DNA from: Bacteroidota bacterium
Lineage (GTDB): Bacteria; Bacteroidota; Bacteroidia; SXHM01
Length of the DNA: 64,000 bases
NCBI GenBank assembly: GCA_947479755.1
Contig: CANKAM010000005.1
Coordinates: forward strand, 52,187 to 116,186
Direction: 5' to 3'
Below are positions 1,681 to 39,456 of this stretch, piece by piece. Both the position numbers and the translations under genes were made by a program. The notes under the pieces were generated by a model. That model was not told the origin of the DNA, ran no database searches, and worked only from the letters and a program-made list of their open reading frames with translations. Every line of letters starts with the position of its first letter. Within the stretch, counting starts at the first letter, position 1.

Positions 1681-1725
1681 TGTTTGGATTTATTTTGCTT
1701 AACTTGCGTGGAAAATTTGGAAACC

Positions 1726-4308: not shown

Positions 4309-6477
4309 CTACTCTGCAATATACCCTGCCTCGCGCCAGATGTAGTTGCCGGTCTTTAAATTAAAGTAGGCCATCTTTCGGTTTTTCTTCAGCAATACCA
4401 CATCGCCTTCCATCATGCTACCTGCTTCATCAATTTCGCAGGGAATAACGTACGCATTGCTTTTATTGATAAAGCCCAGTTTGCCGGCTTCGCTTACTTT
4501 GGCAATGCCGTTAGTAAAATCTCCTGCTTCTTCAAATACGCTGGGTGTTTGCGTTAATCCTTTCGTGTCGATGTAACCGAATTTATCGCTGCGTTTTACA
4601 CGCGCCAGTCCTTCCGAAAAATTACCGGCAACCTCAAACTCAAACTTTATGATGGTCTTTTGCGTGGAGTCAATGTATCCCCATTTACCTTTCTTCTTTG
4701 CTGCAAGCAAGCCTTCCGAAAACCTGCCGATGTCGTCAAACTGTGGTGGAATTAGTTCCTTGCCTGTTATGTCAATCACCCCCATTTTACCTTTCAGTGT
4801 TACGGGAGCTTTGCCGTTTTTAAATGCCAGTTCAGGCAATGCCTGATCAAAAGCAAAATCATACATCACGGGAATAACAACCTGTCCGTTTTTATCAACA
4901 TATCCGTATTTTTCGGCTTTAACTACTACAGCTAGTCCTTCGCTGAACGAGCCTATCTCATCGTATTCGCACTGCACAATGGGCTCACCAACTTTTGAAA
5001 TCAGTCCGTAAAAACCATCCTTTTCTACCCGCGCCAATCCGTCTTTAAACGATTCTGCATCATCAAAATCGTAAGGAATAACAATGTTACCTGACTTATC
5101 AATGAATCCCTTTTTATTATTGAACTCAACCACTGCCCTGCTCTCCGAAAAATCTTCGGCATCATCAAACAGCAAAGGAATAGCAAGCGTTCCTGATTTA
5201 TTTACAAAACCATATTTATCGTTAAGCACTACGCGCGCCAGCCCTTCCGAAAAGTCAAAAACTTCATCGTATTTCAGCGGCACTACCACCTTGCCGGTGT
5301 AATCCACCATGCCATAAAACTCTTCGTTACCCACCACGGCAAAACCATCATGAAAGGGCTCCACTTCCGAATACTGCAGAGCAACAACCGCTTCACCTTT
5401 CTTGTTGATGAAGCCTGCCTTATCGGCCTTGCCCACTTCAGCAATACCTTCGTTAAAAGGTTCACACCAATCGTATTCAAAAGCAATGATCACCTTTCCA
5501 TTGCCGTTTACATAACCCCATTTCTTGTCGCGCACCGCAGGGTAGTAGCGGCTTTTAGCAATCTCCAGATCTTTCAGCACTTCATTTTTATAAGGATAAT
5601 CAGGATACTCTAATCTGAAGTCAGCAAATGATTCAGGATTTGAATCAGCAGTATAAATAGAATAGATTTTGCGCCATGCCTCGGGCACATTATGATTGTC
5701 GGGATACTTCTTTATAAAATCATGGTACTCTTTTATTTTTCCTTTAACAACCGACAATTCGTAAATCTTATTCTCCGCTTCTTTGCGGTAAGTGGTCTTG
5801 GGATACTGTTTCAGAAAATCCAGGTACGACTGGATATTCTTGGGATTGGTAAGTGTTTCGTACAAAGTGGTCTCATACTTTTCCGTTGCAATTACTAAAT
5901 CCTCTGCGGCAGGATATTTATCCATATAAGCCTTGAAAGCCTGATAGGTTCCCTCCTTCTCCGCATTGAGATACGCAAGATGATTGCGAAGTTTAACAAC
6001 CTCATTTAACTGAGGTGCTTCTTTAAAACCTGCAAGAAACCATTCACAACGCTCAACGGTGTTTAAATTGTTTACATCTTCAAATGCGAGAAGAAAAACA
6101 GCCTGCTTCTGCGTTTCAATAGAATTGGAAGTGATGTCAAGCTCAATAAGTTTCTTCTTATCCTTTTCCTCCAGCAAAGCAAAAGCCTGGTCAGATTTCA
6201 CGATTGCTGCCAAAGCAGAATCAAGATTATGAAAAGGGTTTTTATCATTCGCAAAAATCAAACTCAGTCCGTAATAAGCTCCTGCAGGTTCTTTCTTGGT
6301 TGACTTTTCAAATAACTCTTTTGCGGTGAAATAATCGAAACGCTTTAAGGCTTCAAAGGCTTTGTCGAGGGGGCCGCGAAGCCTCATCCCCTGCCCTTCT
6401 CCGAAGGATAAGGGAGCAGAGTACAACACAACTGCAATTAGAATAATAAATACTGATATTTTTTTCACGGCTTTCAA
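4309..6477 (-). CDS. WG-repeat (KWG/WG_beta_rep) protein with signal peptide and an N-terminal TPR-like helical region
   Basis: More than 12 tandem repeats of roughly 37 aa of the form KWGY(V/I)(N/D)..G..VIP..YD....F.EGLA.V. Signal peptide MKAVKKISVFIILIAVVLYSA. Stop codon abuts the convergent SprB-like gene. Confidence 0.8.
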   Translation of the reverse strand: MKAVKKISVFIILIAVVLYSAPLSFGEGQGMRLRGPLDKAFEALKRFDYFTAKELFEKSTKKEPAGAYYGLSLIFANDKNPFHNLDSALAAIVKSDQAFALLEEKDKKKLIELDITSNSIETQKQAVFLLAFEDVNNLNTVERCEWFLAGFKEAPQLNEVVKLRNHLAYLNAEKEGTYQAFKAYMDKYPAAEDLVIATEKYETTLYETLTNPKNIQSYLDFLKQYPKTTYRKEAENKIYELSVVKGKIKEYHDFIKKYPDNHNVPEAWRKIYSIYTADSNPESFADFRLEYPDYPYKNEVLKDLEIAKSRYYPAVRDKKWGYVNGNGKVIIAFEYDWCEPFNEGIAEVGKADKAGFINKKGEAVVALQYSEVEPFHDGFAVVGNEEFYGMVDYTGKVVVPLKYDEVFDFSEGLARVVLNDKYGFVNKSGTLAIPLLFDDAEDFSESRAVVEFNNKKGFIDKSGNIVIPYDFDDAESFKDGLARVEKDGFYGLISKVGEPIVQCEYDEIGSFSEGLAVVVKAEKYGYVDKNGQVVIPVMYDFAFDQALPELAFKNGKAPVTLKGKMGVIDITGKELIPPQFDDIGRFSEGLLAAKKKGKWGYIDSTQKTIIKFEFEVAGNFSEGLARVKRSDKFGYIDTKGLTQTPSVFEEAGDFTNGIAKVSEAGKLGFINKSNAYVIPCEIDEAGSMMEGDVVLLKKNRKMAYFNLKTGNYIWREAGYIAE

Positions 6478-6511
6478 AATCCCCTCTTCTTTGGAGAGTG
6501 TTAGGGTAAGG

Positions 6512-8701
6512 CTACTTGATTATCGTCATTTCATCAATCAGATGCTTTGCGCCCGCAAATTTATCAATGATAAACAGTGTGTAGCGTATATCAACCGAAA
6601 TATTTCTTGCCATAGCGGGGTCATACATCACATCGGCAGCAGTGCCTTCCCAGTTGCGGTCGAAATTGGTGCCGATTAGTTGTCCTTGTGCATTCAGCAC
6701 CGGAGCACCCGAATTGCCTCCCGTTGAATGATTAGAAGCAATAAAGCAAACGGGCACCGTTCCGTTTACGGCATATTCACCATAGTCTTTCTTCTCATAC
6801 AGTTCTTTCAGTTTTGCCGGAACAGAAAACTCTTTATCTCCCGGCTTTTCTTTTGCAATCACTTCGTCAACAGTGGTAAAAGGAGTAAAAACAACACTAT
6901 CGTTAGGAGCATAGCCTTCAATCTTTCCATAACTTAATCTCAGTGTTGAGTTGGCATCGGGATAAAACAATTTATCAGTTTGAAACTCACGTAAGGCCTG
7001 GGTATAAATACGGTTGAGGCTGTCGAGTTTTATATCAAGTTTAACATAGTTGGGGTAGATGCTTTCCTTGAAGTTTTGAGTAACAGTTGATACAAATTGA
7101 AATGCTAAATCATTTGCTCCAAATCCGTTTTCTGATTTTATTGTATCAGGTATGTATTTCTTCCCTTCTCTTTCAATTAAAGCATTAAGATTTGCAATAG
7201 ATTTTAACGAGTCAAGTAAATCACCTGAAAATAATGTTGAGATATATTCATCATTATTTTTCTTGTATTTCTTTCTTTGTTTTTCAGTCAACACTTCGGG
7301 CATGTAATCAATGATAGCCTTAATCTGGTGATTGGCACAATCCAAATCAATAGCTCGATTATAATTTTTAAAGAATGAATGAATGTACTTGGTCTGTTTT
7401 TCTACTTCTATGCTTAATGCTTCACGCTTTACCCCATTCCTCAGCAAATCCGAAAGTTTGGTAAAACTATTTATGTAGCTGACAAAGTCCATTGTAGTAA
7501 ACGCTTCATTATACAACACCAGACCTTTGTTGTAAGGTCCAAATTCATTGTAAGTCGTTTCTAATTCAGGTAACAGATTTCGATACTTCACTTTCCTGTT
7601 CTCATCTGCATTCACCCATTCTGTAAATCGTTTTTCCAACTCCTGTTTTCTCTGTACTGCATCAACTTTCTTCAGACCAATACTTTCACCTATAAACTTC
7701 TTGTAGTAGTTCTTGATGTTTGCATATTTTGAAGTAAGGTTTAATTTCACCTGCGGGTCGGCAGCCATCGCTTTTTCCATCACAGCAAGGCGTTTTTCAC
7801 GAATGGAAATTTTCAGAGGATCTTCCTCTTCCACCAATTGCTTAACAGCAAAGGAAGTCAGGTATTCCTGCGTTCTTCCCGGAAAACCAAACACCATTGT
7901 AAAATCCCCTGTCTTCAATTCCTTCATTGAAATCTCAAAATGCTTCTTCGGTTTATAGGGAACATTGTCGGGCGAATATTCTGCCGGCTTGTTCAAACTA
8001 TCGGCATAAATGCGGAACAACGCAAAATCACCGGTGTGGCGGGGCCACATCCAGTTGTCGGTATCAGCACCAAAGTTGCCTATGGAATAAGGAGGAGCGC
8101 CAACCAATCGCACATCTTTAAATGTTTCGGTGATAAAAATATAGTATTCATTACCACCAAAAAATTCTTTCACCTTGGCTTCATAGTGTGTTCCTTCTAC
8201 CATTTTTTTCTCCAATGCTTTTGAGGCTTTGTCAATTGCAGTGTAACGTTCCACTTCGGTCATTTCGGGAGTAACATTCTTTAACAACTCCGAAGTAACA
8301 TCTTCCATACGCACCAGAAATGTAGCTGTCAGTCCGGGATTGGAAAGTTCTTCGCTTCTGTTCATTGACCAATAGCCCTGATCAATGTAATTATTCGCCA
8401 GCGTGCTGTGCGACTGAACTTTGCTGCGCCCGCAATGATAATTAGTAAGCAACAGACCTTGCGCTGAAATAATTTCGCCAGAGCAGCCGCCACCAAACTG
8501 CACCACCGCATCTTTAAGACTTGTATGATTAACACTGTAAATATCTTCAGCAGACAGTTTTAATCCTTTGCTCTGCATATCGGCCTCGTTATACTTGGCA
8601 AGAAACAGAGGAACCCACATGCCTTCATCAGCATGTGCGTGAAATACGTTTACGTAAAGCGCGCAAAGAAGCAGAAAGCGCAAAGAAAAACTCTTAGCCA
8701 T
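6512..8701 (-). CDS. S46 family dipeptidyl-peptidase (DPP7/DPP11-like serine peptidase)
   Basis: Signal peptide then the hallmark ADEGMWVP N-terminus. NYHCG His region and the C-terminal GGNSGAPV serine motif are present. The ATG at 8699-8701 overlaps the upstream FabZ-like gene by 8 nt. Confidence 0.8.
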   Translation of the reverse strand: MAKSFSLRFLLLCALYVNVFHAHADEGMWVPLFLAKYNEADMQSKGLKLSAEDIYSVNHTSLKDAVVQFGGGCSGEIISAQGLLLTNYHCGRSKVQSHSTLANNYIDQGYWSMNRSEELSNPGLTATFLVRMEDVTSELLKNVTPEMTEVERYTAIDKASKALEKKMVEGTHYEAKVKEFFGGNEYYIFITETFKDVRLVGAPPYSIGNFGADTDNWMWPRHTGDFALFRIYADSLNKPAEYSPDNVPYKPKKHFEISMKELKTGDFTMVFGFPGRTQEYLTSFAVKQLVEEEDPLKISIREKRLAVMEKAMAADPQVKLNLTSKYANIKNYYKKFIGESIGLKKVDAVQRKQELEKRFTEWVNADENRKVKYRNLLPELETTYNEFGPYNKGLVLYNEAFTTMDFVSYINSFTKLSDLLRNGVKREALSIEVEKQTKYIHSFFKNYNRAIDLDCANHQIKAIIDYMPEVLTEKQRKKYKKNNDEYISTLFSGDLLDSLKSIANLNALIEREGKKYIPDTIKSENGFGANDLAFQFVSTVTQNFKESIYPNYVKLDIKLDSLNRIYTQALREFQTDKLFYPDANSTLRLSYGKIEGYAPNDSVVFTPFTTVDEVIAKEKPGDKEFSVPAKLKELYEKKDYGEYAVNGTVPVCFIASNHSTGGNSGAPVLNAQGQLIGTNFDRNWEGTAADVMYDPAMARNISVDIRYTLFIIDKFAGAKHLIDEMTIIK

Positions 8702-9071
8702 TATCTCTTTTGAAAACTCCTTTGAACTTAAAGAATACTTTTTCTCCTGCAGAGATTGCAGCGTTTGCAGAAATCAATCCGTCCTGCTCTTTAGTATCTA
8801 AAGCAATTTGCAAAACAGCATTAACTGTCGGGTCAACAACTGCAAGAAATTTAACCTGCGAAGATTGTACTAACTGTGTGGTAGCGTCTAGTGATTTCTC
8901 AAGTACCTCTTTTGAAATCTGTATCAGACAAACACCCGGCAATACAGGACTATCAGGGAAATGTCCTTTAAAAATAGCATGTGCAGCATTCAGTCCAACT
9001 TCAGCCTGAACCTTTCCTGTTTCAGGGATGATGAAATTATTCAAAGCGTAAAAATCAATCTGATTAAGCAT
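8694..9071 (-). CDS. FabZ/FabA-like hotdog-fold 3-hydroxyacyl-ACP dehydratase
   Basis: 125 aa with HFPDSPVLPGV (dehydratase His motif). Sits within the aryl-polyene/flexirubin-type cluster. Confidence 0.7.
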   Translation of the reverse strand: MLNQIDFYALNNFIIPETGKVQAEVGLNAAHAIFKGHFPDSPVLPGVCLIQISKEVLEKSLDATTQLVQSSQVKFLAVVDPTVNAVLQIALDTKEQDGLISANAAISAGEKVFFKFKGVFKRDNG

Positions 9072-9080
9072 ATTCTGAAA

Positions 9081-9731
9081 TTAATTACCTGTAAATATGC
9101 TACTTTCTAACGAAACGTTAATCTTTTTATTACTGAACTCAACCTCCGTATAATCACCCGACAACTCCGTCATCCTGAATTTTGAAACTGAGAAGTCTTT
9201 CTTGTCAAAATAAATCAGAATATTCTTCACATACTCTTTCATGTTCTTCTGCAAGGGTGAAAGTTCAGCAAGAAACGAATCGCTTCCTTCAAAATAAGTG
9301 ATTTTGTAATCAGCACTTTCAAGAATATCGCCTTTTACTGCTGCCAACATCAAGTCATTTACCTGTTTAAAAATACGGTTACTGTTCATGTCAAACTTCT
9401 TAACCTTCCCGTTGTCTTTGATGAAGGCTTTGCCGCTGTTCAGCACAATCAAATACTGAACAGGCTCTTTGTATTCCCAGCGTAACAGGTTGTCCTTCTT
9501 AAACCAGAATTTTCCTTTACTCACGCTGTTTTCCGTAAGCATGGAAAGATGTTTCACTTGTTTGAAATCACTCTCCAAAGAGTTGGTTTTCTTCGTGTAT
9601 TCCTGTGCCTTTTTCCTTAATTCTGTTGCATCAGCAACAGTCTTGTAGCCGGGATATTGTGCATAAACCTGAGAAGAAAGAAATAAGATGCAAGAAACAA
9701 GAAAACCAATTTTTAAACCAACCTTTTTCAT
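9081..9731 (-). CDS. LolA-like outer-membrane lipoprotein carrier family protein
   Basis: 216 aa with a signal peptide. Size and position match the LolA-like components of aryl-polyene/flexirubin loci. Sequence similarity was judged by eye only. Confidence 0.55.
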   Translation of the reverse strand: MKKVGLKIGFLVSCILFLSSQVYAQYPGYKTVADATELRKKAQEYTKKTNSLESDFKQVKHLSMLTENSVSKGKFWFKKDNLLRWEYKEPVQYLIVLNSGKAFIKDNGKVKKFDMNSNRIFKQVNDLMLAAVKGDILESADYKITYFEGSDSFLAELSPLQKNMKEYVKNILIYFDKKDFSVSKFRMTELSGDYTEVEFSNKKINVSLESSIFTGN

Positions 9732-9732
9732 A

Positions 9733-10506
9733 TTATTTATATGCCTTTACATTAAACAATTCATCAGGCCTTACAACAGTATATCCCTGCGTTTTCGCTT
9801 CTGTTAAAAATTTATCAATCAAAGGTACAACACCCTCCCATGTATCGTGAAACAAAAACACTGCTCCCGGTTTTAATTGCTTCGTTAATTTATTCATCAG
9901 TTTTTGCTCGTTTCTCTGCATTGAATCCATAGAGCGAACACTCCATCCGATGGTTTCATATTGCTTTTCCTTCACTGCTTTCTTCATTGCTGGAGTAGTA
10001 ATTCCGTAAGGCGGACGATAAAAATTCATTTGCTTACCCGTTGAATCAAAAACAAGTTTGTTTGATTGTTCAAATTCACGTTTCATTTTTCCGGAAGTAA
10101 AAAAATCAAAAAAATTAGAATGCGAGAAACTATGATTGCCGATAATGTGTCCTTCAAAATCTATTTTATTTAAGACCTCTTCGTTGCCGTCAATTTTCCT
10201 GCCAATACAGAAAAACGCTGCTTTTGCATTGTGCTTATTCAGCACTTCCAGCAGAGCAGGAGTAACATTTTTATCAGGCCCATCATCAAATGTAATGGCT
10301 ATTTCCCTTTTATCAGTCTTAACCTCACACCGTGTTTTTATATGATAGTTGGAGTTAATGAAATATGAACCCCAGAACATTATTGCAAGTTTTAAAACAA
10401 CCAGCATGGGATAAAACCAATTGCTTATGCCTATCCTGAAATCAAGGGTAAGCAACAAAACAAATAATAATGGGAAAATTAAGTTAACGCTTCGGTGATT
10501 CAACAT
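9733..10506 (-). CDS. Polysaccharide deacetylase (NodB homology domain) with N-terminal transmembrane segments
   Basis: ITFDDGPD motif plus H..H.SH and LFHD motifs typical of the CE4 family. Confidence 0.75.
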   Translation of the reverse strand: MLNHRSVNLIFPLLFVLLLTLDFRIGISNWFYPMLVVLKLAIMFWGSYFINSNYHIKTRCEVKTDKREIAITFDDGPDKNVTPALLEVLNKHNAKAAFFCIGRKIDGNEEVLNKIDFEGHIIGNHSFSHSNFFDFFTSGKMKREFEQSNKLVFDSTGKQMNFYRPPYGITTPAMKKAVKEKQYETIGWSVRSMDSMQRNEQKLMNKLTKQLKPGAVFLFHDTWEGVVPLIDKFLTEAKTQGYTVVRPDELFNVKAYK

Positions 10507-11564
10507 TGCGAAACCAGCATGAACGAATAATTAATATCGCGGTAGTGATTAACGATAAGAATATTTTTCACTGCACCTAATGGTGCTTTACCAAGTCTTA
10601 CCACTTCGGGAACATCTTGTTTTTTTATCACATTTGCCGAAAGCCAGAGCGCAAAAGCTGAAGATGTATAATAATCACCACAGAGATGTTTAAAATATGC
10701 TCCTGCTGTTTGATTGAACATAGTATCGCGCAAATGATAGTAAACACCATCTGTTCTTACATCGCCATTTAAACCGTAAACTACAAGATCAATATCTGCT
10801 ACCGAAAGATTATTGCGCTTCAAAAAATCAATAGTATGTTGCTCAACTTCTTTTTCGTTTTCAGGTTTGTATAGCGTTGACAATCCTTTCAGAAGTGCAT
10901 AGTTATTTGCATCTTCTTTGTCTGTGAGCATGAAAAATGTTGCTCCTTCACCGGAAATGGTTCCTGAAGTTTTGCTTTCCAGTAGTTGAAGACTATTGAT
11001 TTTTTCTTTTTTCCAGTGTCCTAACCTTTCGGTTGTAACATGAAGATTAACTGAGTTTTCATCAAAACCACCCAACAAAATTTTATGCGCATTACCTTCT
11101 GCAATCAACATCAAACTATCCAATAAAGCAGTTTCAAATGAAAAACCACGGTTCACATACGTACTGTTGTATTCTTTGCACTTCAGCATAATGGCAACCT
11201 GTCCGCTGATGGTGTTGTGCGTGCTTTGCATAAAAGCAGTTGGCGTTAATTGCTGCTCATTGTTATTCAACATTGCCAGCAAAAATTTTTCGGTGTCCTC
11301 AATGCAACCGAAACCCGTTCCTGTAATAACTGCATCAGGCATTTCAATTCCTGAATCAGTCAAACAGATTTTTGCTGCTGTAACGCCCATACGGAGTGTT
11401 CGGCTCATTCTTCGCAACTGCAAAGGGTTAATAAATTCCTTGTAAACCGGGTCAATGCAGAAAAGCATATTAGTATTGTATCCAACAACAGTATCAAGGA
11501 AATCATCCTTATCAAATGTTTGCTGAGGCGAAATCTGCCCTATGCCTCGGATATACGCCTTCAT
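10500..11564 (-). CDS. Beta-ketoacyl synthase-like protein lacking the catalytic Cys; probable chain-length-factor-type partner
   Basis: Thiolase/KS fold features (GTGFGC, GGFDE), but the position expected for the TAC(S)S active site reads NSTYVNRG. Overlaps neighbouring genes by 4 and 7 nt. Confidence 0.6.
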   Translation of the reverse strand: MKAYIRGIGQISPQQTFDKDDFLDTVVGYNTNMLFCIDPVYKEFINPLQLRRMSRTLRMGVTAAKICLTDSGIEMPDAVITGTGFGCIEDTEKFLLAMLNNNEQQLTPTAFMQSTHNTISGQVAIMLKCKEYNSTYVNRGFSFETALLDSLMLIAEGNAHKILLGGFDENSVNLHVTTERLGHWKKEKINSLQLLESKTSGTISGEGATFFMLTDKEDANNYALLKGLSTLYKPENEKEVEQHTIDFLKRNNLSVADIDLVVYGLNGDVRTDGVYYHLRDTMFNQTAGAYFKHLCGDYYTSSAFALWLSANVIKKQDVPEVVRLGKAPLGAVKNILIVNHYRDINYSFMLVSQC

Positions 11565-12769
11565 GCTTTTGAAAAAATTAACGATGTGTTGTTACCGCCA
11601 AAACCAAATGAATTGGAAAGCACATTTTTTACTCCTGCATTTTCCAGAACATCAGTAACCGGAACCAAATCAAATTCATCCATTTTATCCTTAAAATTAA
11701 GATTAGGAAAAATGGTGTTATTATGAATTGACAACGCAGAAAAAACAGCTTCAATTCCGCCTGCTGCTCCAAGCGTGTGTCCGGTATATCCTTTTGTAGA
11801 ACTGAATTTAGGAACATTATTTCCGAAGAATTTCATCATTGCATTTCCTTCCGATAAATCATTAATCTGTGTTGCTGTTCCGTGAACATTTACATAATCA
11901 ATGTCTTCTATTTTCAGCCCGCTAAGTGCCAATGCGCTGCTCATGGAAAGAAATGCTCCCGTTCCTTCCGGTGATGATGCAGTCTGGTGATACGCATCGC
12001 AGGTGTTTGCATACCCTTTGAGTTCGCAATAAATCTGTTTTCCTGCTTTCTGCGCTGCTTCTAACGATTCCAAAACAACAAAACCGGATCCTTCTCCAAG
12101 CGTAAGCCCGGTACGATTTTTATCAAAAGGTTTGCAATATTCTTTATCTAAAATCATCAAGGTATTAAATCCGTTGATGGTAAATTTTGTAAGTCCGTCA
12201 ACACCACCCGCCACTACCCTATCTACAATTCCGTGCTTTATCAATCGCGCTCCCAGCATCAGTGCATTTGCCGATGATGAACAGGCTGTATTAATAGAAG
12301 TAATGAAATCTTTTATACCAAGATTGTCTGCTATTTTCTCAGCACTGTCACCGCAATCATGCGAATCTATATACTTTACAAAGTCGCCCGTCTTCTCAGG
12401 ATTAATGTAGTCGAGATAGAATTTTTCGGTGCTTCCCATTCCGCCAACAGTAGTTGCAGAAATTAAAGCTGTTCGTATTCCGTCACCTTTCTTTGCTCCC
12501 GAATTATCAAATGCTTCTTTGGCGGCTATCATTCCCAATAAGGCTGTGCGTGTATAACCTGTATCCTCTGCTAAACCTGCAATCTGCAGCAACTCCTCAT
12601 CCGTATGCTTAACTTCAGCAATGGGAAGATTTCCTTTATGAATTGTTTCCAGATATTTAATCTGTCCTATGCCCGAACGTTTTGCACGCAGCGATGCGAG
12701 ATTCTGCTGCACATTGTCACCAATGGCAGAAATAATTCCCAACCCTGTGATTACAATCCTTTCAGACAT
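11561..12769 (-). CDS. Beta-ketoacyl-ACP synthase II family (FabF-like KS)
   Basis: Active-site Cys in INTACSSS, His in VHGTATQ and GYTGHTLGAAG, and C-terminal FGFGGNN. Confidence 0.85.
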   Translation of the reverse strand: MSERIVITGLGIISAIGDNVQQNLASLRAKRSGIGQIKYLETIHKGNLPIAEVKHTDEELLQIAGLAEDTGYTRTALLGMIAAKEAFDNSGAKKGDGIRTALISATTVGGMGSTEKFYLDYINPEKTGDFVKYIDSHDCGDSAEKIADNLGIKDFITSINTACSSSANALMLGARLIKHGIVDRVVAGGVDGLTKFTINGFNTLMILDKEYCKPFDKNRTGLTLGEGSGFVVLESLEAAQKAGKQIYCELKGYANTCDAYHQTASSPEGTGAFLSMSSALALSGLKIEDIDYVNVHGTATQINDLSEGNAMMKFFGNNVPKFSSTKGYTGHTLGAAGGIEAVFSALSIHNNTIFPNLNFKDKMDEFDLVPVTDVLENAGVKNVLSNSFGFGGNNTSLIFSKA

Positions 12770-12775
12770 TTCGCC

Positions 12776-13033
12776 TTAGGCTTTTCCGTGAGCAGTAATA
12801 TATTCTGCAATAGTGCGGATAGTGGCGAAAATCTTTTTCCCATCGGCAGGATTTTCAATTTTAAGTCCGTAATTTTTCTCAAGCAGAACAATGAGTTCAA
12901 GCGCATCAATAGAATCTAAACCCAAACCTTCGCCAAACAGCGAATCATCTGGGCTGATATCGTCAGGAGAAACACCTTCAAGATTTAATTGTTCAATAAT
13001 CTGTGTCTTAAGTTTAGCTATTAATGCGTCCAT
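12776..13033 (-). CDS. Acyl carrier protein
   Basis: 85 aa with the phosphopantetheine attachment motif LGLDSIDALEL. Confidence 0.85.
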   Translation of the reverse strand: MDALIAKLKTQIIEQLNLEGVSPDDISPDDSLFGEGLGLDSIDALELIVLLEKNYGLKIENPADGKKIFATIRTIAEYITAHGKA

Positions 13034-13043
13034 TGCTTGTTTA

Positions 13044-13652
13044 TTATCCGTTATAATATTTATTTAAATTCTCGTTTGTCAGTTCTGTACCGTCTGGTGT
13101 TTCTTCTGCAAGGCAAAGAAAAGCTTCATAGTTTTCATTCAGTAATTCAACCCAACCAATAACAACTGTTTTTGCTTTTTGTTCCTGTATTAATTGAGTC
13201 GCATAATTACACAAAAAATCTGCTTGAAAATGCTCGAAAACAAAAAAAGCATTTTCGCCCTTAAATTTATTGCGGATACTGATTTCACCCAGCATAATAT
13301 TGGGAAGTGTATAAACAAATAATGACGGGCTTGCGAAGTCTTTCACCGTGTTATAGTAGTTGATATCAGTGTCTAATGAAGATGAAGTATTGGCAAACAG
13401 AAGAGAAACATTTTCAGCACCATATTGTTCTGACAGCTTTCTGTTTTTCAGCAAAAACTCTGAAGTAATAAAAGCAAGTTTACACAAGTCGTCCATCTTA
13501 AAAAACTTGAGATAGGGCGAAGCATTCAAATCATAAGCTGATTTTATAAATTCATTAAAAGGAACTTCGACACCTTTTGTAAGCAAGGCTTCTCCATTCA
13601 GTTTAATCTGATTATTTCGGATTGAACAATATGTTGAAATGCAAATGCTCAT
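13044..13652 (-). CDS. Hypothetical protein translationally coupled to the upstream KS; possibly a small chain-length-factor-like partner
   Basis: 202 aa, with a 4-nt overlap with the KS gene at 13649-13652. No catalytic motifs recognised. Assignment rests on position only. Confidence 0.35.
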   Translation of the reverse strand: MSICISTYCSIRNNQIKLNGEALLTKGVEVPFNEFIKSAYDLNASPYLKFFKMDDLCKLAFITSEFLLKNRKLSEQYGAENVSLLFANTSSSLDTDINYYNTVKDFASPSLFVYTLPNIMLGEISIRNKFKGENAFFVFEHFQADFLCNYATQLIQEQKAKTVVIGWVELLNENYEAFLCLAEETPDGTELTNENLNKYYNG

Positions 13653-14803
13653 ATGCTTTTAAAAATTACCGCAGCATTACAACCTCCAAAACCAGATGCT
13701 GTTTTCAAACTTGTATTAACTTCCCTCTTTTCTCTTTGTGTGATAATATTCAGCTGTTCTGAAACACCTGAATTTTGGAAGCCCTGTGAAGGGAGCAACA
13801 CATTTCGTTTCATCGTTTCTAATGTTACTACAGCTTCAATAACGCCTGCAGCGCCCAATGTATGACCAAAAAAACCTTTCATACTATTAAGCGGAACATT
13901 TTGTAAACCAGCAACCGAAAAAGCTTTCGACTCCATTTCATCATTAAATGCAGTTGCGGTTCCATGAGCTGAAATAAAATCAATTGCGATTCCGCACTGC
14001 GCTTCTTTTGTCGCATTGGTAACAGCTAAAGCAAGTTCTTCCCCTGTGCGTGATGGTCCTGAAATGTGGTTCGCATCGTTGCTTACTGAACCTCCGGCTA
14101 CTATTATTTTCTTATCGTTATTATTCAACAAGTTTTCATCAGAAGTCAGTAATAAAGTTCCGCAGCCTTCTCCAAGCGTAATTCCTTTTCGCGCTGCATC
14201 ATAAGGTTTGCACGGCTCATCACTTAACGCTTTGAAAGAATTAAAACCTGACAACGTAAATTCAGAAACCAAATCACCACCCGAAACAATTACATTTTCA
14301 TATTGTCCTGAACGGATTAAACGCTGCGCGGTGATAATCGCAAGAACACCTGAAATACAGGCATTACTCAGAACTAAAGGAGAATTCTTCATTCCGAAAT
14401 AACGCGCAACTTCGCTTGCCATATCAGAAAGCAACAACCGTTTCTCAGAAAAACCTCCATAATTTTCTTCTTCAAGCAAATTGATATTACCCTTGGTAGT
14501 TGAAATAATCAGAAGTGTATTTCCCGCTTTTATATCTAATCCTGATTCCTCAATCACATCAGCAATGGAGAGAATAAATATTTTTTCAAGTCTTGTGAAG
14601 TTCTGCTTATTGTTTAGAGCAGAAAATTTCTCATTCAACTTTCCGTCATCAACAAGTGAAGCGTAAAATGAAAAAGGCAAAAAATCTTCACGAGTAAATT
14701 TCTGTATTCCGGTTCTGCCCTGCTCCATGGCTGAAAAATTTTCTTCTGCAGTAAATCCCAATGAAGAAATTATGTTTCCCTGAGCAGCGAAAACAGTTTT
14801 CAT
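13649..14803 (-). CDS. Beta-ketoacyl synthase (KS) of the type-II polyketide/fatty-acid-like aryl-polyene pathway
   Basis: Active-site Cys in LSNACISG, His in SAHGTATAF and GFFGHTLGAAG, and C-terminal SGFGGCNAA. Confidence 0.85.
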   Translation of the reverse strand: MKTVFAAQGNIISSLGFTAEENFSAMEQGRTGIQKFTREDFLPFSFYASLVDDGKLNEKFSALNNKQNFTRLEKIFILSIADVIEESGLDIKAGNTLLIISTTKGNINLLEEENYGGFSEKRLLLSDMASEVARYFGMKNSPLVLSNACISGVLAIITAQRLIRSGQYENVIVSGGDLVSEFTLSGFNSFKALSDEPCKPYDAARKGITLGEGCGTLLLTSDENLLNNNDKKIIVAGGSVSNDANHISGPSRTGEELALAVTNATKEAQCGIAIDFISAHGTATAFNDEMESKAFSVAGLQNVPLNSMKGFFGHTLGAAGVIEAVVTLETMKRNVLLPSQGFQNSGVSEQLNIITQREKREVNTSLKTASGFGGCNAAVIFKSI

Positions 14804-15228
14804 TTCAATAAACCGTTTTTCTTTTTCCAGCTTTCAAAATAGGGAGGATGATTGAGGAAAAGATTACTGTTCTTGTCTAAAAAAACCTGAATGGTTTCGC
14901 CCATTGCCGACAAAGCTCCATCGGACTTACAAAAGATTTTATATCGAAAATGAATTTTTGCTGCCGGATTATTCACAAACTCTGTTTCAATAATAGCCAC
15001 ATCACTGTATTTTAAAGGCTTTTTGTGTTCGCAAAGTGTCCTGACAATAGGTGTAGCAAAACCCTCATTATACATGGCAAGGTAATTCAGTCCGTGTTCT
15101 GCCGAAAAAGCCTCACGACCGTCCTCAAAATATTTAATATAGTTGCCGTGCCAGACAATGCCAAGCGCATCCGTATCGCTGAAGCGGATTTGTATTTCGG
15201 AACGGGAAACTAATTGGGCTTTTTTCAA
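14800..15228 (-). CDS. 4HBT-type hotdog acyl-ACP/CoA thioesterase
   Basis: 142 aa with FSDTDALGIVWHGNY (YbgC/4HBT signature D..G.V.H..Y). The start is TTG at 15226-15228; there is no in-frame ATG upstream. Confidence 0.7.
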   Translation of the reverse strand: MKKAQLVSRSEIQIRFSDTDALGIVWHGNYIKYFEDGREAFSAEHGLNYLAMYNEGFATPIVRTLCEHKKPLKYSDVAIIETEFVNNPAAKIHFRYKIFCKSDGALSAMGETIQVFLDKNSNLFLNHPPYFESWKKKNGLLK

Positions 15229-15320
15229 TGTTAAGAAATTGTAAAAATTGCGACTGCAAAGAAAGGAAAAAAAGCCGCCTGTTTGATGCCTGTATTACAA
15301 ACACTGACCAACATCAATCG

Positions 15321-15758
15321 CTACTCCTCAATTTTCAGTTTTTTAATTGCCTTTATCGGGCCGGGACAAACGGATTGGTGGCAGTTAATGCAACGCTGAA
15401 CAAGACTATTGTAATTTGTTTCAAGTTCACTGGGTGAGGATTGATACAATTGTTTTAAACCCTCAACATAGCTGGCAGCAAAGGCTTCAAATTCTTCGGT
15501 TTTCACTGTTGGGTCGGTAGGTTTAGCTGTATGAATTTTTAAAAAAGCTTCCGGAAATTTTTCCGGAAGCTTTCCTTGTTTAACTAATTCTTTTATGGAT
15601 GCTGTTGAATCGTTCATCATGCGCATGAGTAATGCCAGCTCGCTGTCGCCATTTGGATTCAAAGGCTTATCAGAAGTGTTTTTACACTGGAACAAAAATA
15701 AACTGACAAAAGCTGCTAAAAAAAACAAACTGATTTTACCAACAAACGCAGTCTTCAT
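15321..15758 (-). CDS. Small probable lipoprotein with a single CxxCH (c-type haem-binding-like) motif
   Basis: Signal peptide ending LFLFQC, and the motif QRCINCHQSVCPG near the C-terminus. Lies 5 nt downstream of the TonB-dependent receptor gene. Confidence 0.45.
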   Translation of the reverse strand: MKTAFVGKISLFFLAAFVSLFLFQCKNTSDKPLNPNGDSELALLMRMMNDSTASIKELVKQGKLPEKFPEAFLKIHTAKPTDPTVKTEEFEAFAASYVEGLKQLYQSSPSELETNYNSLVQRCINCHQSVCPGPIKAIKKLKIEE

Positions 15759-15763
15759 TTCAA

Positions 15764-18238
15764 TTAAACCTTAAGCGTATATTGCAATGAAATAGTACGG
15801 GGAGCTTCAATTTTAAGCGGGCGCAATGAGTACTCTCTGTTCAGAAAATTGTTGCTGATTAGTGCAATCTTATGACTAGGTGAAATCTGGTAACTCAAGC
15901 GGATGTCCATCACAATGTTACCATGTTTGTTATCACCGATAATAATTTTATCTGATACACCTTGTTGTGAAGGTATATAAATGTCACCACGATATTGAGG
16001 CAAACCGGTTTGTAAAACTGTATTATCCAAAGCATAAAAATTGCGGTCGAGATTTTTCATATAACTATAATAGCGACAACTGTATCCAAGTGTAAATTTT
16101 TTGTAAAAAAACTCTACATCAATTTTTGCAATATGCTTGAAACGATATTTTAATATGTCGTTTGTAGTATCAATACTTGTCTTTTTGAAAGTCAATTCAT
16201 TTCCCTGTATACCACTTATCGAATTATCTGTATCAACACTATCAGTTCCGAATACAAAATCAGGGCTAAGATTTTTAGGAGTTGTATAGGTATAACCAGC
16301 TAATACATTCATGCCAAAATGTTTTGTGAACTGTCCCCTGCCGATAATGGAAATATCGATACCACGAACTTGAATATCTGCTGTATTCATAAATCTAAAA
16401 CCATTACTTGAAACACCAAGAGTCGGTTTCCACTGAGCAAAAACATATTCCATAGCGTTCTGATATTCCTGCCAAAATCCTGCGAGATCAATGTAACCAA
16501 AGAATTTCCCAATTTTAAAACCTTGCTTAATACCCATTTCAAAATTCCAGCTTGTTTCTGGTTTTAAAGTTTGATTTGGAAATACCCCTAACCCTCCGGC
16601 ACTGGTTTGAATGTACTTTTCAGCAATAGTAGGAAAACGATAGCCTTGACCATATGAAGTTCTGAAGTAGGTTTCTTTAGCTGCTTTCAGGCTTAAACCA
16701 CCCCTGAGAACAGGCTTTGTAACAAATTCCTGCTCATTAATCTGAAAAAATTCATAGCGCACACCCCCTGAAAAATTCACTACATCTTTCCAGAATTTTT
16801 TATCAACCTGCATGTAGCCGGCTGCATTTTTTGAATTATTCAACCCATTTGAATCAGCATTTGCAATATATAATTGCGACCATGAATCAACATAACTACC
16901 CGTAAATCCTGCTGTCATTGTCAACCCGTCTAAAGATTGCCACGATCTCTGAAATTGATAGTCGCCAAAGAATACTGTACTTATATTACTCTGGTTATTT
17001 CCGTTATCATTATCAGTGTGATTAATTCGTGTTCTTAAACTGTGGCGGTAGCCTTTAGGACTGTAATAGGTTATAAACGGATCAATGTAAAACAGAAACA
17101 TGTCCTGCACGGTCATTGTTGCAGGAAATGCGGTATATATTCCTGATCCTGCTGTATCCCAAACCAACGAAAAATTAGTGTGTGAAAGCATAAAATTTCC
17201 ATTTACCCCAACAGCCAAACCTTCCACCTTTTTGAAACGGTAACGTAAGTTAAAATTAACTCGGGCTTTTCGGTCCTGAACATCCTTTTCAGAAATTGAA
17301 TAATTCTGAAAGGATGAATCTTTTCCTGTTTCAATAATTGGAGGACCAATATAATTATGGTCATACAAGACATTTCCGCCAAACACAAAATCAAGCTGAC
17401 CAATTTTACGGGAGTGAAAAAAATTCATCCCCGAAAAGTTGGCAATGCCATCCCACCATTTTGCTTCTTTAGTAGCCGGTGTACTGTACATCCCCGTAAA
17501 AACATTCACGTTGGTTAACGGCTCGTTTTTAGGATATGCTGTGCGTATATTGATAATGCCGTTAAGAGCTGATGAGCCATAAAGCACAGATGACGCACCT
17601 TTAATTACTTCAATCTGTTCAAGATTTTCAACCGGAATAAAGCTCCATTCAGGTTTTCCTACATCACCAATTGAAATGGGTAGTTCATCAACATATACAC
17701 CAACGCGAGTTCCAACGCCAAAGTTAAAACCGCTACCTCCTCGTATTTGAGGTTCGCTGTCAAGAATAACAAGTCCCGGAGCCTGTTCCAGTGCAGTCTG
17801 TATACTTTTTGTATTTTTATTTTCAACCAGATTTGGCTTTATCACCTCCATTGAAACAGTTACTTCACCATAGCTCTGTTCAAATTTTCCTGCAGAAACA
17901 ACGGTTATACCAAGTTCCTGAGCAGCATCGTTCATCTCAACGCTAAAGGTGGTTACTTGTCCTTCTGTAAAAGTTAAGGTAAGCGTATCGCTCTGCATCC
18001 CTGTGAAGGTAAAAATTACACTTTGCTTTCCAACAGGAAGTTTCAGTTCATAATTTCCGTTAAAATCGGTGATTGTTCCAATTTTAGGGTCGCTTTTCAA
18101 AACAACACTTGCGCCTATAATTGTATCTTTAGTTTTCCCATTAGTAACTGTTCCTTTTAGTGTTCCCGTTTGTGCATATGAAACGAAATTGAAAGCAAGA
18201 ATCAGAAAGCAAGAGGAAATGAAATGGTTTAGTTTCAT
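15764..18238 (-). CDS. TonB-dependent outer-membrane receptor with N-terminal carboxypeptidase-regulatory-like domain
   Basis: Signal peptide, then a TGTLKGTVTNG...IIGASVVL CarbopepD_reg-like beta-sandwich. Plug domain motifs (YGSSALNGIINIRT) and a long beta-barrel follow. Confidence 0.85.
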   Translation of the reverse strand: MKLNHFISSCFLILAFNFVSYAQTGTLKGTVTNGKTKDTIIGASVVLKSDPKIGTITDFNGNYELKLPVGKQSVIFTFTGMQSDTLTLTFTEGQVTTFSVEMNDAAQELGITVVSAGKFEQSYGEVTVSMEVIKPNLVENKNTKSIQTALEQAPGLVILDSEPQIRGGSGFNFGVGTRVGVYVDELPISIGDVGKPEWSFIPVENLEQIEVIKGASSVLYGSSALNGIINIRTAYPKNEPLTNVNVFTGMYSTPATKEAKWWDGIANFSGMNFFHSRKIGQLDFVFGGNVLYDHNYIGPPIIETGKDSSFQNYSISEKDVQDRKARVNFNLRYRFKKVEGLAVGVNGNFMLSHTNFSLVWDTAGSGIYTAFPATMTVQDMFLFYIDPFITYYSPKGYRHSLRTRINHTDNDNGNNQSNISTVFFGDYQFQRSWQSLDGLTMTAGFTGSYVDSWSQLYIANADSNGLNNSKNAAGYMQVDKKFWKDVVNFSGGVRYEFFQINEQEFVTKPVLRGGLSLKAAKETYFRTSYGQGYRFPTIAEKYIQTSAGGLGVFPNQTLKPETSWNFEMGIKQGFKIGKFFGYIDLAGFWQEYQNAMEYVFAQWKPTLGVSSNGFRFMNTADIQVRGIDISIIGRGQFTKHFGMNVLAGYTYTTPKNLSPDFVFGTDSVDTDNSISGIQGNELTFKKTSIDTTNDILKYRFKHIAKIDVEFFYKKFTLGYSCRYYSYMKNLDRNFYALDNTVLQTGLPQYRGDIYIPSQQGVSDKIIIGDNKHGNIVMDIRLSYQISPSHKIALISNNFLNREYSLRPLKIEAPRTISLQYTLKV

Positions 18239-18257
18239 TTTTTTTCAGATTTTAGTT

Positions 18258-18297
18258 AATAAAAAAGAAACCCGTCTTGCTTGGGGCGAGACGGGTT
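18258..18297 (-). terminator. Rho-independent terminator downstream of the T9SS cargo gene 18312..19190
   Basis: Hairpin AACCCGTCT(18269-77) / AGACGGGTT(18289-97), followed on the minus strand by a T-run (A-run 18261-18267 on plus). Confidence 0.6.
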
Positions 18298-18311
18298 CTC
18301 AGTTAATCCGT

Positions 18312-19190
18312 TTAGCGGGTAACTGCAAATTTACCCGTGTGCAAAATTTCTGAATTGTTATCTGTAAACGTGTAAAGATAAACTCCCGGTGAGTATGTTG
18401 AAATATTGGTTCTTGTTGTGTTAAGCCCAATGTTTAGTTCATTTACTTTTTTACCGGTTACATCGTACACCTGCATTTTTGCGGATTTGTTAAGCGGATT
18501 TTTTACAAATAATTCATCGGTTGCAGGATTTGGATACACATTGAATGCATATTTAGTATTGTTTTCGTTAATACCTGTTGTGAAAACAAATTCCAAATCA
18601 TCAAACTGTACAACACTTCCTACTACAGGAGAATATCCTGAACTTGGCAATAAAATAACTCTTGATAACTCAGGATTTCCTGATGAAAAATATACAAAAG
18701 GCACAGAAAAGCGGAACCATTCTGATGCTGCAACCGGCTGATCAAATCTTGCACGGGCAACTGTATCTGAGGCATTCGCGTTCATCAATAGCACCTCGAT
18801 ATAAGCTGTGTCAGTATTTACAGGTGCGTATTTCATCCAACCTACAACGCTGTCAGGACGTTCAGTATAAGCAATACCACCTTCAATTACCTGAGTAGTT
18901 GTATTAATAGTTCCTGTGGTAACAAGAGCCGGTGCTGCCTGATTAAAAGGTGCTCCTATAAATTTTGTTTCGCCACGCAAAGAATAGGAGCCGCTATGTG
19001 CGTCAGTTGACTTTGTAACGGTAACTATTCCAAGAAAAGAAGTAGAGGAATTTAAGGTGCTCCAGTTGTTAGGATTATCATAACCTGAACCTGCTGTCCA
19101 GTTTTCAAAACCAGGATTTGGTAAAGCTTGTGCATTAACTGAGTAATTAATAACAATACCTGAAAGTATAAGTGTAAATAATTTTTTCAT
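18312..19190 (-). CDS. Secreted protein with T9SS C-terminal sorting domain; N-terminal domain of unknown function
   Basis: Signal peptide MKKLFTLILSGIVINYSVNAQ. C-terminus NVYPNPATDELFV...GVYLYTF... is a T9SS CTD. The N-terminal domain begins NPGFENW. Confidence 0.75.
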   Translation of the reverse strand: MKKLFTLILSGIVINYSVNAQALPNPGFENWTAGSGYDNPNNWSTLNSSTSFLGIVTVTKSTDAHSGSYSLRGETKFIGAPFNQAAPALVTTGTINTTTQVIEGGIAYTERPDSVVGWMKYAPVNTDTAYIEVLLMNANASDTVARARFDQPVAASEWFRFSVPFVYFSSGNPELSRVILLPSSGYSPVVGSVVQFDDLEFVFTTGINENNTKYAFNVYPNPATDELFVKNPLNKSAKMQVYDVTGKKVNELNIGLNTTRTNISTYSPGVYLYTFTDNNSEILHTGKFAVTR

Positions 19191-19311
19191 TTTTATTTTT
19201 TTTGGTTAATAATGTGGTCAAAAGTAGAAATTATTTAATACTACAAACTGAAGTCGCCTTTCATGTTTTCAACAAGAAATGAAAGATGAAATTTATACCT
19301 AATTTGGCGGC

Positions 19312-19902
19312 ATGAACCAACGTATTATTCTTGGCATTGACCCCGGAACAATTGTAATGGGTTACGGAATCATCCGCATCAAAGGCAACGAACCTGAGTT
19401 ACTGGCTATGGGTGTTTTAAAGTTAGACAAGTTTGAAGTGCACCACGACCGTTTGAAAAAGATTTTCGAAAGAACCTCTGCTATTATCAATGAGTACAAA
19501 CCTGAAGAAATGGCAATTGAAGCGCCTTTTTTCGGGAAGAATGTGCAGAGCATGTTAAAACTTGGTCGCGCACAGGGAACAGCAATTGCAGCAGCGCTCA
19601 ACAAAAGTATTGAGGTCGTAGAATATTCACCACGAAAAATAAAACAGAGCATTACCGGAAACGGAAGTTCCAGCAAAGAACAAGTGGCTGCGATGCTTTG
19701 CACTATTCTAAAACAAAAATCTTTTGCCGGTCCGCTGGATGCTACCGATGGATTAGCGGCTGCGGTGTGTCATTTTTTTCAGACACGACTTGGGCTTCCT
19801 AAATCAATTCAAAAGATTGAAGGCACAAAAAAAACAGGAAGAAAAAAAAATTATTCGGGTTGGGAAAGCTTTTTGTCGGAAAATCCTGACAGAAAGTTAT
19901 AG
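19312..19902 (+). CDS. ruvC: Crossover junction endodeoxyribonuclease RuvC
   Basis: ILGIDPGTIVMGYG N-terminus and overall RNase H-like RuvC pattern. Length 196 aa. Confidence 0.9.
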   Translation: MNQRIILGIDPGTIVMGYGIIRIKGNEPELLAMGVLKLDKFEVHHDRLKKIFERTSAIINEYKPEEMAIEAPFFGKNVQSMLKLGRAQGTAIAAALNKSIEVVEYSPRKIKQSITGNGSSSKEQVAAMLCTILKQKSFAGPLDATDGLAAAVCHFFQTRLGLPKSIQKIEGTKKTGRKKNYSGWESFLSENPDRKL

Positions 19903-19905
19903 TTC

Positions 19906-20658
19906 TTAAAGAAAACTATTCAACAACTTGCCTGATTCAAGCAACTTGTGCAGATAGGGCTCATAAAGAACACGTGCACGTATAGCTTCCAAATGTTTAT
20001 CGTGGTGCATATCGGTTCCCAATAAATCAATCATTCCTAGGTTCACTAATTGTTCGGCAGTTTTATTCACCTCTTTTGAATAATACTGCGTTAATGACAA
20101 AATATTGAGTTGCAGCAATGCACCCATATCTTTTATGCGCTCATATTTCTCCATATTCCCATGCCAATATGGATAACGTTCAGGATGTGCAAGAATAGGT
20201 TTATAACCGGCAACAACTAGATTGAAAATTGCTGACTCCAAATTATCGGGTGGATTTAGAAAAGAAACCTCAATCAATATGTATTTACCTGAAAAAGTAA
20301 GCACTTCTCCCCTCTTTAGTCTTTCGCCAAACTCAAAATCAACATAATATTCACTTGCAGCTTCCAACTGAATGTCGATGTTATTTTTCTTCAGTTCCTC
20401 ACGCACCTTTTCCAAACCACCCAAAATAATTTCCGGTGTGTTTTTATAGTAATCACTCATGGTATGAGGAGTGGTTACAATTTTTTTGTAACCCAACTCT
20501 TTCATGCCACGAATAAGACGGATAGAATCTTCCAAAGTCTGAGCACCATCATCAATTCCCGGAATAAAATGCGAGTGCATGTCGGTTTTTAAAACAGATA
20601 GATCTACAGGAGATGAGGTTAACTTTTTCCTATTGAATAACCCTGAAAAGAATGACAT
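19906..20658 (-). CDS. PHP-domain Mn-dependent protein-tyrosine phosphatase (CpsB/YwqE-like, capsule/EPS regulation)
   Basis: DMHSHFIPGIDDG N-terminal motif and HPERY motif characteristic of CpsB-type PHP phosphatases. Confidence 0.8.
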   Translation of the reverse strand: MSFFSGLFNRKKLTSSPVDLSVLKTDMHSHFIPGIDDGAQTLEDSIRLIRGMKELGYKKIVTTPHTMSDYYKNTPEIILGGLEKVREELKKNNIDIQLEAASEYYVDFEFGERLKRGEVLTFSGKYILIEVSFLNPPDNLESAIFNLVVAGYKPILAHPERYPYWHGNMEKYERIKDMGALLQLNILSLTQYYSKEVNKTAEQLVNLGMIDLLGTDMHHDKHLEAIRARVLYEPYLHKLLESGKLLNSFL

Positions 20659-20666
20659 GAGAAGGA

Positions 20667-25062: not shown

Positions 25063-25067
25063 AAATT

Positions 25068-33169: not shown

Positions 33170-33215
33170 TATATTATTTGCTTTGGAAATAAATACTGCA
33201 AAACACCTTCAAAAA

Positions 33216-37040: not shown

Positions 37041-37107
37041 CTCAACTCTTAAATTTTTTAAACAACTAATTTACGAACTTTCAGATTACTATAGTTGTCC
37101 CCGAAAA

Positions 37108-39345: not shown

Positions 39346-39456
39346 CTAGTTATTTCACATATTTATCAGCCTGTGAAGCCTTTTTAATTTCGGGTTAATA
39401 ATACCAAATATTTTAAAACACGCAAAAAATTTAAATCTTCGTTATTAACAATTTTA

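Follow-up and report, generated by a model that had tools for sequence, protein, structure and literature searches.

The systems closest to the locus considered here are the flexirubin loci of Flavobacterium johnsoniae (Fjoh_1078-1110) and Chitinophaga pinensis (flxA-flxY). In the F. johnsoniae flexirubin operon De Smet et al. described the genes lolA2 and lolB2 (Fjoh_1085 and Fjoh_1084), and reported them from no other type of locus (PMC11885536). In C. pinensis, the flx cluster was found by Schöner et al. to contain several ketosynthases (KS), dehydratases and thioesterases, the polysaccharide deacetylase FlxP and the LolA protein FlxR, with darA/darB at a separate locus (PMC3992019). The proteobacterial ape clusters (ApeA-R) of Escherichia coli CFT073, Xenorhabdus doucetiae and Acinetobacter baumannii were compared as well. 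Their product class, predicted for the present genes as well, is a type II polyketide synthase (PKS) polyene lipid bound for the outer membrane. ApeC of these clusters is a half-size chain length factor (CLF) that keeps the first thiolase domain only and is paired with ApeO (PMC8358021). Here, a 64-kb stretch of DNA from a Bacteroidota bacterium (contig CANKAM010000005.1, further called the window) was analyzed, in which nine genes of the flexirubin/aryl-polyene type are directly followed by genes for an S46 dipeptidyl-peptidase and a WG-repeat protein.

Based on the analyses given below, it was concluded, with a probability of roughly 75%, that the array is made of two modules, separate in both evolution and function, which lie end to end and are probably co-transcribed in one clade of uncultured freshwater Bacteroidia. 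Their neighborhood seems to have arisen by chance, as gene order commonly does, and to be a juxtaposition rather than a shared pathway, and the array is made up of known kinds of genes in a lineage-specific order. The comparative context, including a natural deletion variant, cleanly separated both modules.

Related loci were collected by a scan with a LolA2 alignment, in which one genome per species was used, and the gene content and order were determined by tblastn with the proteins of the window. This resulted in 80 loci, 76 of them outside the clade. Among the 76 non-clade loci, 69 shared the core order of the window and 52 contained all eight core genes. Neither S46 nor WG was located near the core in any of the 76, of which 59 had at least 4 kb of sequence past LolA2. 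The original prediction had proposed to check whether the S46 and WG genes travel with the cluster in other genomes; outside one narrow clade they did not. The clade itself is represented by metagenome-assembled genomes of uncultured freshwater Bacteroidia, several of them from lakes. Clade LolA was at least 73% identical and S46 at least 63%, identity falling to about 50% beyond the clade, and the FabZ-like protein was found identical on many metagenome contigs. Within the clade, S46 and WG come after the core, as the original prediction had noted for the window, and S46 begins within the FabZ-like gene. This 8-nt overlap was shared by all clade loci, including those with an S46 identity of only about 72-75%.

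The independence of the peptidase pair from the lipid pathway was argued most strongly by the deletion deduced in locus L092. This locus retained the same upstream genes as the window, those for a protein with a type IX secretion system (T9SS) C-terminal sorting domain, a TonB-dependent receptor and a CXXCH lipoprotein, as well as the downstream S46-WG pair. The TonB receptor was collinear, and the identities to the window were 63% for S46, 70% for WG, 82% for the TonB receptor, 72% for the T9SS-sorted protein and 53% for the CXXCH protein. In place of the nine lipid genes, 95 nt (9906-10000) were found between the CXXCH gene and S46. The top match of this stretch against the whole window was 8706-8744 (33 of 39 positions identical, E 2e-7), which corresponds to the final 13 FabZ-like codons, right before the S46 start. 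The scar retained a frameshifted FabZ-like remnant of about 17 codons directly before the S46 start (window counterpart 8694-8790), encoding EKIFFKFKGTFKRTND followed by a stop, the window equivalent being EKVFFKFKGVFKRDNG followed by a stop. The KFKGxFK motif within EKIFFKFKGTFKRTND is also the C-terminus of the FabZ-like proteins in L009 and L011, where no S46 gene follows. Since this C-terminal motif is native to FabZ-like proteins of distant genomes lacking S46, the remnant was assigned to the FabZ-like gene. Therefore, the cluster was once present in the L092 lineage and was deleted from it, and S46-WG was retained. The L092 S46 gene was under purifying selection, with a ratio of nonsynonymous to synonymous substitution rates (dN/dS) of 0.095. 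A different origin of the junction, an ancestral S46 leader caught by an inserted cassette, was rejected on account of the same native motif.

The S46-WG pair was also found apart from the lipid genes in more distant genomes. In L093 and L094 the S46 (52% identical) and WG (49%) genes overlap by 1 nt and lie between NUDIX and glutathione-peroxidase genes (the pair at L093:5940-10231). In L100 (7998-12352) WG (38%) is followed by S46 (44%), in the reversed order, as an isolated two-gene unit. No lipid genes accompany either pair, and because of this recurrence S46-WG was considered an independent gene pair with a moderate degree of conservation. In L147-L150, S46 at about 50% identity had neither WG nor lipid genes nearby, and no S46 was located near more than 30 distant WG homologues.

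The properties of the peptidase were those of a known enzyme type. The best PDB match was 5JXF, the DPP11 of Flavobacterium psychrophilum (E 8.7e-196), the His/Asp/Ser triad was present, and the HCG, GDF and GGNSG motifs aligned with 5JXF and 4XZY. The Arg of the NFDR motif aligned with Arg673 of 4XZY, the DPP11 of Porphyromonas gingivalis. We take Arg673 to be the S1 position that confers Asp/Glu specificity and is occupied by Gly in DPP7. On the DPP7 equivalog model NF053519 the protein scored 607.3 bits, below the cutoff of 1200. It is thus predicted to be an ordinary periplasmic DPP11-type, Asp/Glu-specific exopeptidase, sharing with both characterized DPP11 enzymes the full-length S46 domain, the triad, the Arg at position 673, the signal peptide and the DEGMW terminus. 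It differs from them by an identity of at most about 50%, by the WG partner gene and, in the clade, by the overlap with the last lipid gene. In the WG protein a type I signal peptide was seen and a lipobox was missing, in contrast to LolB2.

These data did not support the proposal of the original prediction that the peptidase might process a peptidyl or amino-acid moiety of the product or take part in envelope remodelling together with the lipid genes. A functional coupling of this kind, in which the WG protein might also replace the LolB2 acceptor, was regarded as rather improbable. It is favored by the overlap kept throughout the clade, by the coincidence that the clade which gained the S46-WG adjacency is the one without LolB2, and by the lack of any promoter motif or terminator between the modules. 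However, the association was seen in none of the other species' loci, most of them informative, the pair persists without the cluster both in L092 and in L093/L094 and L100, the triad and S1 Arg of the peptidase are those of an ordinary DPP11, and the signal peptide of the WG protein is of another type than that of LolB2. It is likewise improbable that DPP11-WG is a two-component periplasmic module whose fusion to the LolB2-less core is adaptive in the clade. If true, the fusion would link co-expressed outer-membrane lipid remodelling with peptide scavenging or make the WG protein an acceptor for the LolA2 cargo, and the DPP11-WG module would be the first functional clue to the uncharacterized WG_beta_rep family.

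Some observations weighed against the conclusion that two separate modules are merely juxtaposed. The 8-nt overlap was unchanged across clade lineages that are saturated at synonymous sites (synonymous divergence dS 0.5-2.8), and therefore some selective benefit of co-expression in the clade is possible. The loss of LolB2 falls in the same clade as the S46-WG adjacency. The operon boundaries are predicted ones, and a 'flexirubin-like aryl polyene' would be a family-level assignment of the product, the window being without tyrosine ammonia-lyase (TAL), 4-coumarate-CoA ligase (4CL), ketoreductase (KR), DarA/B, an ApeP-like dehydratase, an exporter and LolB2.

The identity of the nine-gene core was examined further. 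All domain calls of the original prediction, for the 11 genes, were borne out by Pfam and NCBIfam searches. The LolA2 protein reached 216.5 bits on the NF053544 equivalog (curated cutoff 125) and was accordingly assigned to it. KS1, whose nearest relative of solved structure was ApeO, had a Cys-His-His triad with the motifs NACISG, HGTAT and GHTLGAAG, and KS2 had the same triad. The 202-aa partner of KS1 gave no match in Pfam, NCBIfam or PDB when searched as a single sequence. Its family profile retrieved 6KXD_B, the CLF chain of a highly reducing type II PKS (E 6.4e-5), and did not retrieve ApeC (6QSP_B) itself; 19 of 26 homologues weakly matched only the N-terminal half of PF00109. A heterodimeric KS with a half-size CLF of the ApeO:ApeC type was thus recognized at the level of sequence profiles only. 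The FabZ-like protein scored 21.6 bits on the ApeI-like family PF22818 (cutoff 28.5) and weakly matched 6QSR_A (E 0.024). Hydrophobic helices were noticed by sequence inspection at the N-terminus of the CE4 deacetylase.

The core resembled the flexirubin loci in its thioesterase, KS with Cys-less partners, acyl carrier protein (ACP), deacetylase (FlxP), LolA (FlxR) and dehydratase (FlxS), and the type II KS/CLF/ACP/dehydratase/thioesterase block with CE4 was found in the conserved order of such loci. It resembled the ape clusters in the KS/half-size CLF pair, the 4HBT thioesterase (ApeK), the LolA-like protein (ApeL) and, with the ApeI-like score below its cutoff, the FabZ/ApeI-like dehydratase. 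In contrast to ape, where ApeR is a homodimer and two ACPs occur, the second KS here has a full-length CLF, a single ACP is present and CE4 is a Bacteroidota-type addition. The evidence from the LolA2 model, the ApeO-like KS1, the half-size CLF and the gene order supported the predicted assignment of genes 1-9 to the conserved core of flexirubin/aryl-polyene-type loci.

The original prediction had regarded the gene set as the signature of such loci, which held for the conserved central block and failed for LolB2 and for the initiation, reduction and export genes, absent from the window. No ORF for TAL (FlxA, HAL/PAL domain) or 4CL (FlxY, AMP-binding) was found in the 64-kb window; these may lie elsewhere in the genome. 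The window also contained no KR (ApeQ), aryl-activating ligase (ApeH), MMPL exporter (ApeM), methyltransferase, halogenase, glycosyltransferase or acyltransferase, and no KS III or DarA-like ORF, which sets it apart from the flexirubin and ape systems. The absence of darA/darB was not decisive, because C. pinensis keeps these genes at a separate locus. An ApeP-like dehydratase partner was missing from the window and the clade loci, and about 36-39 other loci had one. Searches of the remaining window for LolB2, ApeP, ECH, DUF420 and Cu-monooxygenase homologues gave chance-level matches only, and sugar-nucleotide, housekeeping and envelope proteins made up the remainder.

The usual companions of the core were obtained by clustering the flanking ORFs of the surveyed loci. 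Outside the clade these were an ApeP-like dehydratase (about 36 loci), a GT2-DUF2062 glycosyltransferase (24), an FAD oxidoreductase (23), a halogenase (22), an MMPL-acyltransferase-methyltransferase fusion (21), a methyltransferase (21), ABC transporter components (17 and 14), a lipid-A-type acyltransferase (16) and a KS III (11), and each of them occurred in none of the clade loci. Compact cores without accessory genes were found in other lineages too, for example in L009. Since the usual companion genes were missing from both the clade loci and the window, naming the product 'flexirubin' would overreach, and 'flexirubin/aryl-polyene-type core' is the label supported by the evidence.

The absences would also be explained if the first module were a reduced type II fatty acid synthase/PKS-like system for another outer-membrane acyl lipid, such as one in which an amino-sugar or amino-acid head group carries a polyunsaturated or hydroxylated fatty acyl chain, rather than for an aryl polyene or flexirubin. 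TAL, 4CL or any other adenylating enzyme, KR, DarA/DarB, the ApeP-like dehydratase and the MMPL exporter are lacking from the window and the clade loci alike, the ApeI-like Pfam score is under its cutoff, and compact cores exist elsewhere. Such a system was nevertheless considered unlikely, as the LolA2_flexi assignment concerns a gene reported only in flexirubin-type loci (PMC11885536), an ApeO-like KS1 with a half-size CLF is a hallmark of aryl polyene synthases, and the missing genes could be encoded at another genomic site, like darA/darB of C. pinensis.

LolB2 (NF053540) was found by tblastn neither in the window nor in any clade locus. In 75 of the 76 non-clade loci the slot after LolA2 was filled by a gene of about 200 aa, which was assigned to the LolB2 equivalog in L009 (85.6 bits) and L011 (120.7 bits; cutoff 60). 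The absence of LolB2 and the DPP11-WG pair joined downstream distinguish the window from the flexirubin loci, and LolA2 without LolB2 contradicts the strict lolA2-lolB2 pairing reported for them. In L012, a clade genome, the LolB2 slot (5178-5792) holds a gene for a 204-aa thioredoxin/TlpA-like CxxC protein. In the more divergent relative L007 (LolA2 73% identical) the cluster lies in another upstream context with a Usp gene, and the position after LolA2 is taken, instead of the FabZ-like gene, by a secreted ORF (8909-9412) ending in collagen-like GPTGATGPTG repeats.

The loss of LolB2 and of all accessory genes, together with the complete deletion of the block in the sister lineage L092, could suggest that the nine genes are a decaying remnant of a flexirubin locus and that the S46 adjacency is meaningless debris. 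This was rejected as highly improbable and is largely refuted by the selection and motif checks. The nine ORFs are intact with their catalytic motifs kept, and their dN/dS was 0.03-0.25 over four clade comparisons (0.04 for the thioesterase, 0.03-0.06 for KS2), in the range of the neighboring TonB receptor, S46 and WG genes. Because of these motifs and ratios, the nine-gene block was considered functional. As a minimal core under purifying selection, it helps to define the indispensable part of Bacteroidota aryl-polyene-type loci.

The layout of the array was analyzed next to its gene content. The ORF list gave 11 minus-strand ORFs from 15228 to 4309 with coordinates exactly as predicted originally, including the five overlaps and gaps of at most 34 bp. 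The junction distances were -4 nt for thioesterase/KS1, -4 for KS1/partner, +10 for partner/ACP, +6 for ACP/KS2, -4 for KS2/CLF, -7 for CLF/CE4, +1 for CE4/LolA, +9 for LolA/FabZ-like, -8 for FabZ-like/S46 and +34 for S46/WG. The last value, the widest gap, applies to a WG start at TTG 6477. A start at GTG 6468 (MKKISVF..., with a signal peptide) is more probable for the WG gene, in which case the gap is 43 nt. In some public annotations the CE4 gene begins at a later ATG and encodes 215 aa. The N-terminal 42 residues found only in the longer version were conserved at the protein level in L007 and L095, and a form of 250-259 aa, overlapping the CLF gene, was used by most gene calls. Since the long start is conserved and called in most annotations, the 10506/10500 overlap was regarded as real.

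Overlapping or nearly abutting ORFs on the same strand, with no terminator between them, are as expected of a translationally coupled operon. S46 would very probably be translated from the lipid-gene mRNA in the clade because of the conserved 8-nt overlap; S46 and WG are hence very probably co-transcribed with the lipid genes, S46 being translationally coupled to the last of them. Such tight packing and the start/stop overlap speak for co-transcription, not for a common pathway, and call for caution in this respect. The same-strand tight array extends upstream of 15228 by three genes, up to 19190, with gaps of 73, 5 and 92 nt, and may start at 19190 rather than at 15228. The sole intergenic match to the canonical Bacteroidota promoter consensus TTTG-20 nt-TAnnTTTG in 4300-19400 sits upstream of 19190, which suggests that the transcript starts there and not at 15228. 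The 92-nt gap before the thioesterase gene had no such motif and folded no better than shuffled sequence (z = +0.56), no terminator-like fold was present in the array gaps, and no element was revealed when 3500-19800 was compared with Rfam (E <= 0.1). The TAnnTTTG scan superseded a sigma-70 promoter and intrinsic-terminator scan, which does not model Bacteroidota promoters and gave no more sites than in shuffled sequence. The features are listed in the table.

Table. Genes of the array, the same-strand genes upstream of it and the candidate promoter (window coordinates)
Feature	Position	Strand	Evidence and remarks
Candidate Bacteroidota promoter (TTTG, 20 nt, TACTTTTG)	19219..19250	-	motif scan, consensus match only
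T9SS C-terminal-sorting-domain protein, first of same-strand array	18312..19190	-	PF18962 51.8 bits
TonB-dependent receptor	15764..18238	-	PF13715, PF07715, PF00593; possibly in same upstream transcription unit
145-aa predicted lipoprotein, CXXCH	15321..15758	-	lipobox LFQC, motif CINCH; possibly same upstream transcription unit
4HBT/YbgC-type acyl thioesterase, ApeK-like, TTG start	14800..15228	-	PF13279 59.3 bits; TIGR00051 72.1 (cutoff 68.7)
KS1, ApeO-like ketosynthase	13649..14803	-	PF00109 + PF02801; best PDB match 6QSP_A, E 2e-38
202-aa half-size Cys-less CLF-like partner, ApeC-like	13044..13652	-	family profile; 4-nt overlap with KS1
Acyl carrier protein, GLDSID serine	12776..13033	-	PF00550 42.3 bits; NF006617 83.9 (cutoff 70)
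KS2, FabF-like ketosynthase, intact triad	11561..12769	-	PF00109 + PF02801; TACSSS, HGTAT, GHTLGAAG
Full-length Cys-less KS-like protein, second CLF	10500..11564	-	PF13723 48.7 bits; without active-site Cys
Membrane-anchored CE4 deacetylase, FlxP-like	9733..10506	-	PF01522 108.6 bits; TFDD, HSxxH, RPPY
LolA2, flexirubin-locus periplasmic lipid/lipoprotein carrier	9081..9731	-	NF053544 LolA2_flexi equivalog; signal peptide
FabZ/ApeI-like dehydratase, FlxS-like	8694..9071	-	PF07977 31.2 bits (cutoff 23); HxxxGHFP
S46 dipeptidyl-peptidase, DPP11-type, periplasmic	6512..8701	-	PF10459 727.9 bits; signal peptide, mature N-terminus DEGMW
Secreted WG-repeat protein, 11 repeats	4309..6468	-	PF14903 362 bits, 11 stretches

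A mechanism was proposed for each of the two modules. Orthology and conservation of the genes in module 1 (8694-15228) were observed directly, and from family membership we infer their enzymatic roles. The KS1/half-size CLF and KS2/full-size CLF pairs would extend an acyl or aryl starter on the single ACP, and the FabZ/ApeI-like enzyme would dehydrate the intermediates, resulting in a polyunsaturated (aryl-)acyl chain on the ACP. Any reductase and the starter-activating enzymes would have to be supplied from elsewhere, and the thioesterase would release or edit the chain. The membrane-anchored CE4 enzyme may deacetylate an amino-sugar or similar head group and so ready it for acylation, which is plausible because the mature Xenorhabdus aryl polyene lipid contains galactosamine-phosphate-glycerol (bioRxiv 10.1101/2020.12.19.423268). 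LolA2 would take the hydrophobic product through the periplasm to the outer membrane. Module 2 (4309-8701), the DPP11-type peptidase with its WG partner, would function in peptide catabolism, both proteins acting on peptides in the periplasm and Xaa-Asp/Glu dipeptides being released. Nothing useful on WG-repeat function was found in the literature, the WG_beta_rep family being essentially without functional literature. The recurrent DPP11-WG adjacency in unrelated neighborhoods is thus a rare contextual clue to this family.

Several observations were made on the surroundings of the array. The 145-aa CXXCH lipoprotein, which has a haem-binding-like motif and no family match, always directly follows the TonB-dependent receptor in the clade and in L092. 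At the other end, an 874-aa SprB-repeat/DUF7619 T9SS-sorted protein is encoded at 1684-4308 on the plus strand, convergently with the WG gene. The two ORFs end at 4308 and 4309 with zero spacing, which leaves no room for a terminator.

Just past RuvC, at 19906-26674 (minus strand), a capsule/O-antigen-type sugar-nucleotide block unrelated to the array was located. It comprises genes for a CpsB/CapC phosphatase, three NAD-dependent epimerases/dehydratases, one of the GDP-mannose 4,6-dehydratase type, a UDP-glucose/GDP-mannose dehydrogenase, a GFO/IDH/MocA oxidoreductase and a hexapeptide acyltransferase. Further on, at 31241-44844 (minus strand), five large same-strand genes encode proteins of 642, 1274, 745, 1197 and 554 aa. 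PD40 beta-propeller repeats were found in four of the five, some with TPR and/or OmpA domains, and the 1274-aa ORF had no Pfam match; the run looks like a paralogous array of predicted envelope proteins. Finally, in a 560-aa protein encoded at 60478-62160 (minus strand), lipocalin domains of the CrtC and Lipocalin_9 types occur together with a T9SS C-terminal sorting domain, which suggests a secreted binder of hydrophobic ligands.

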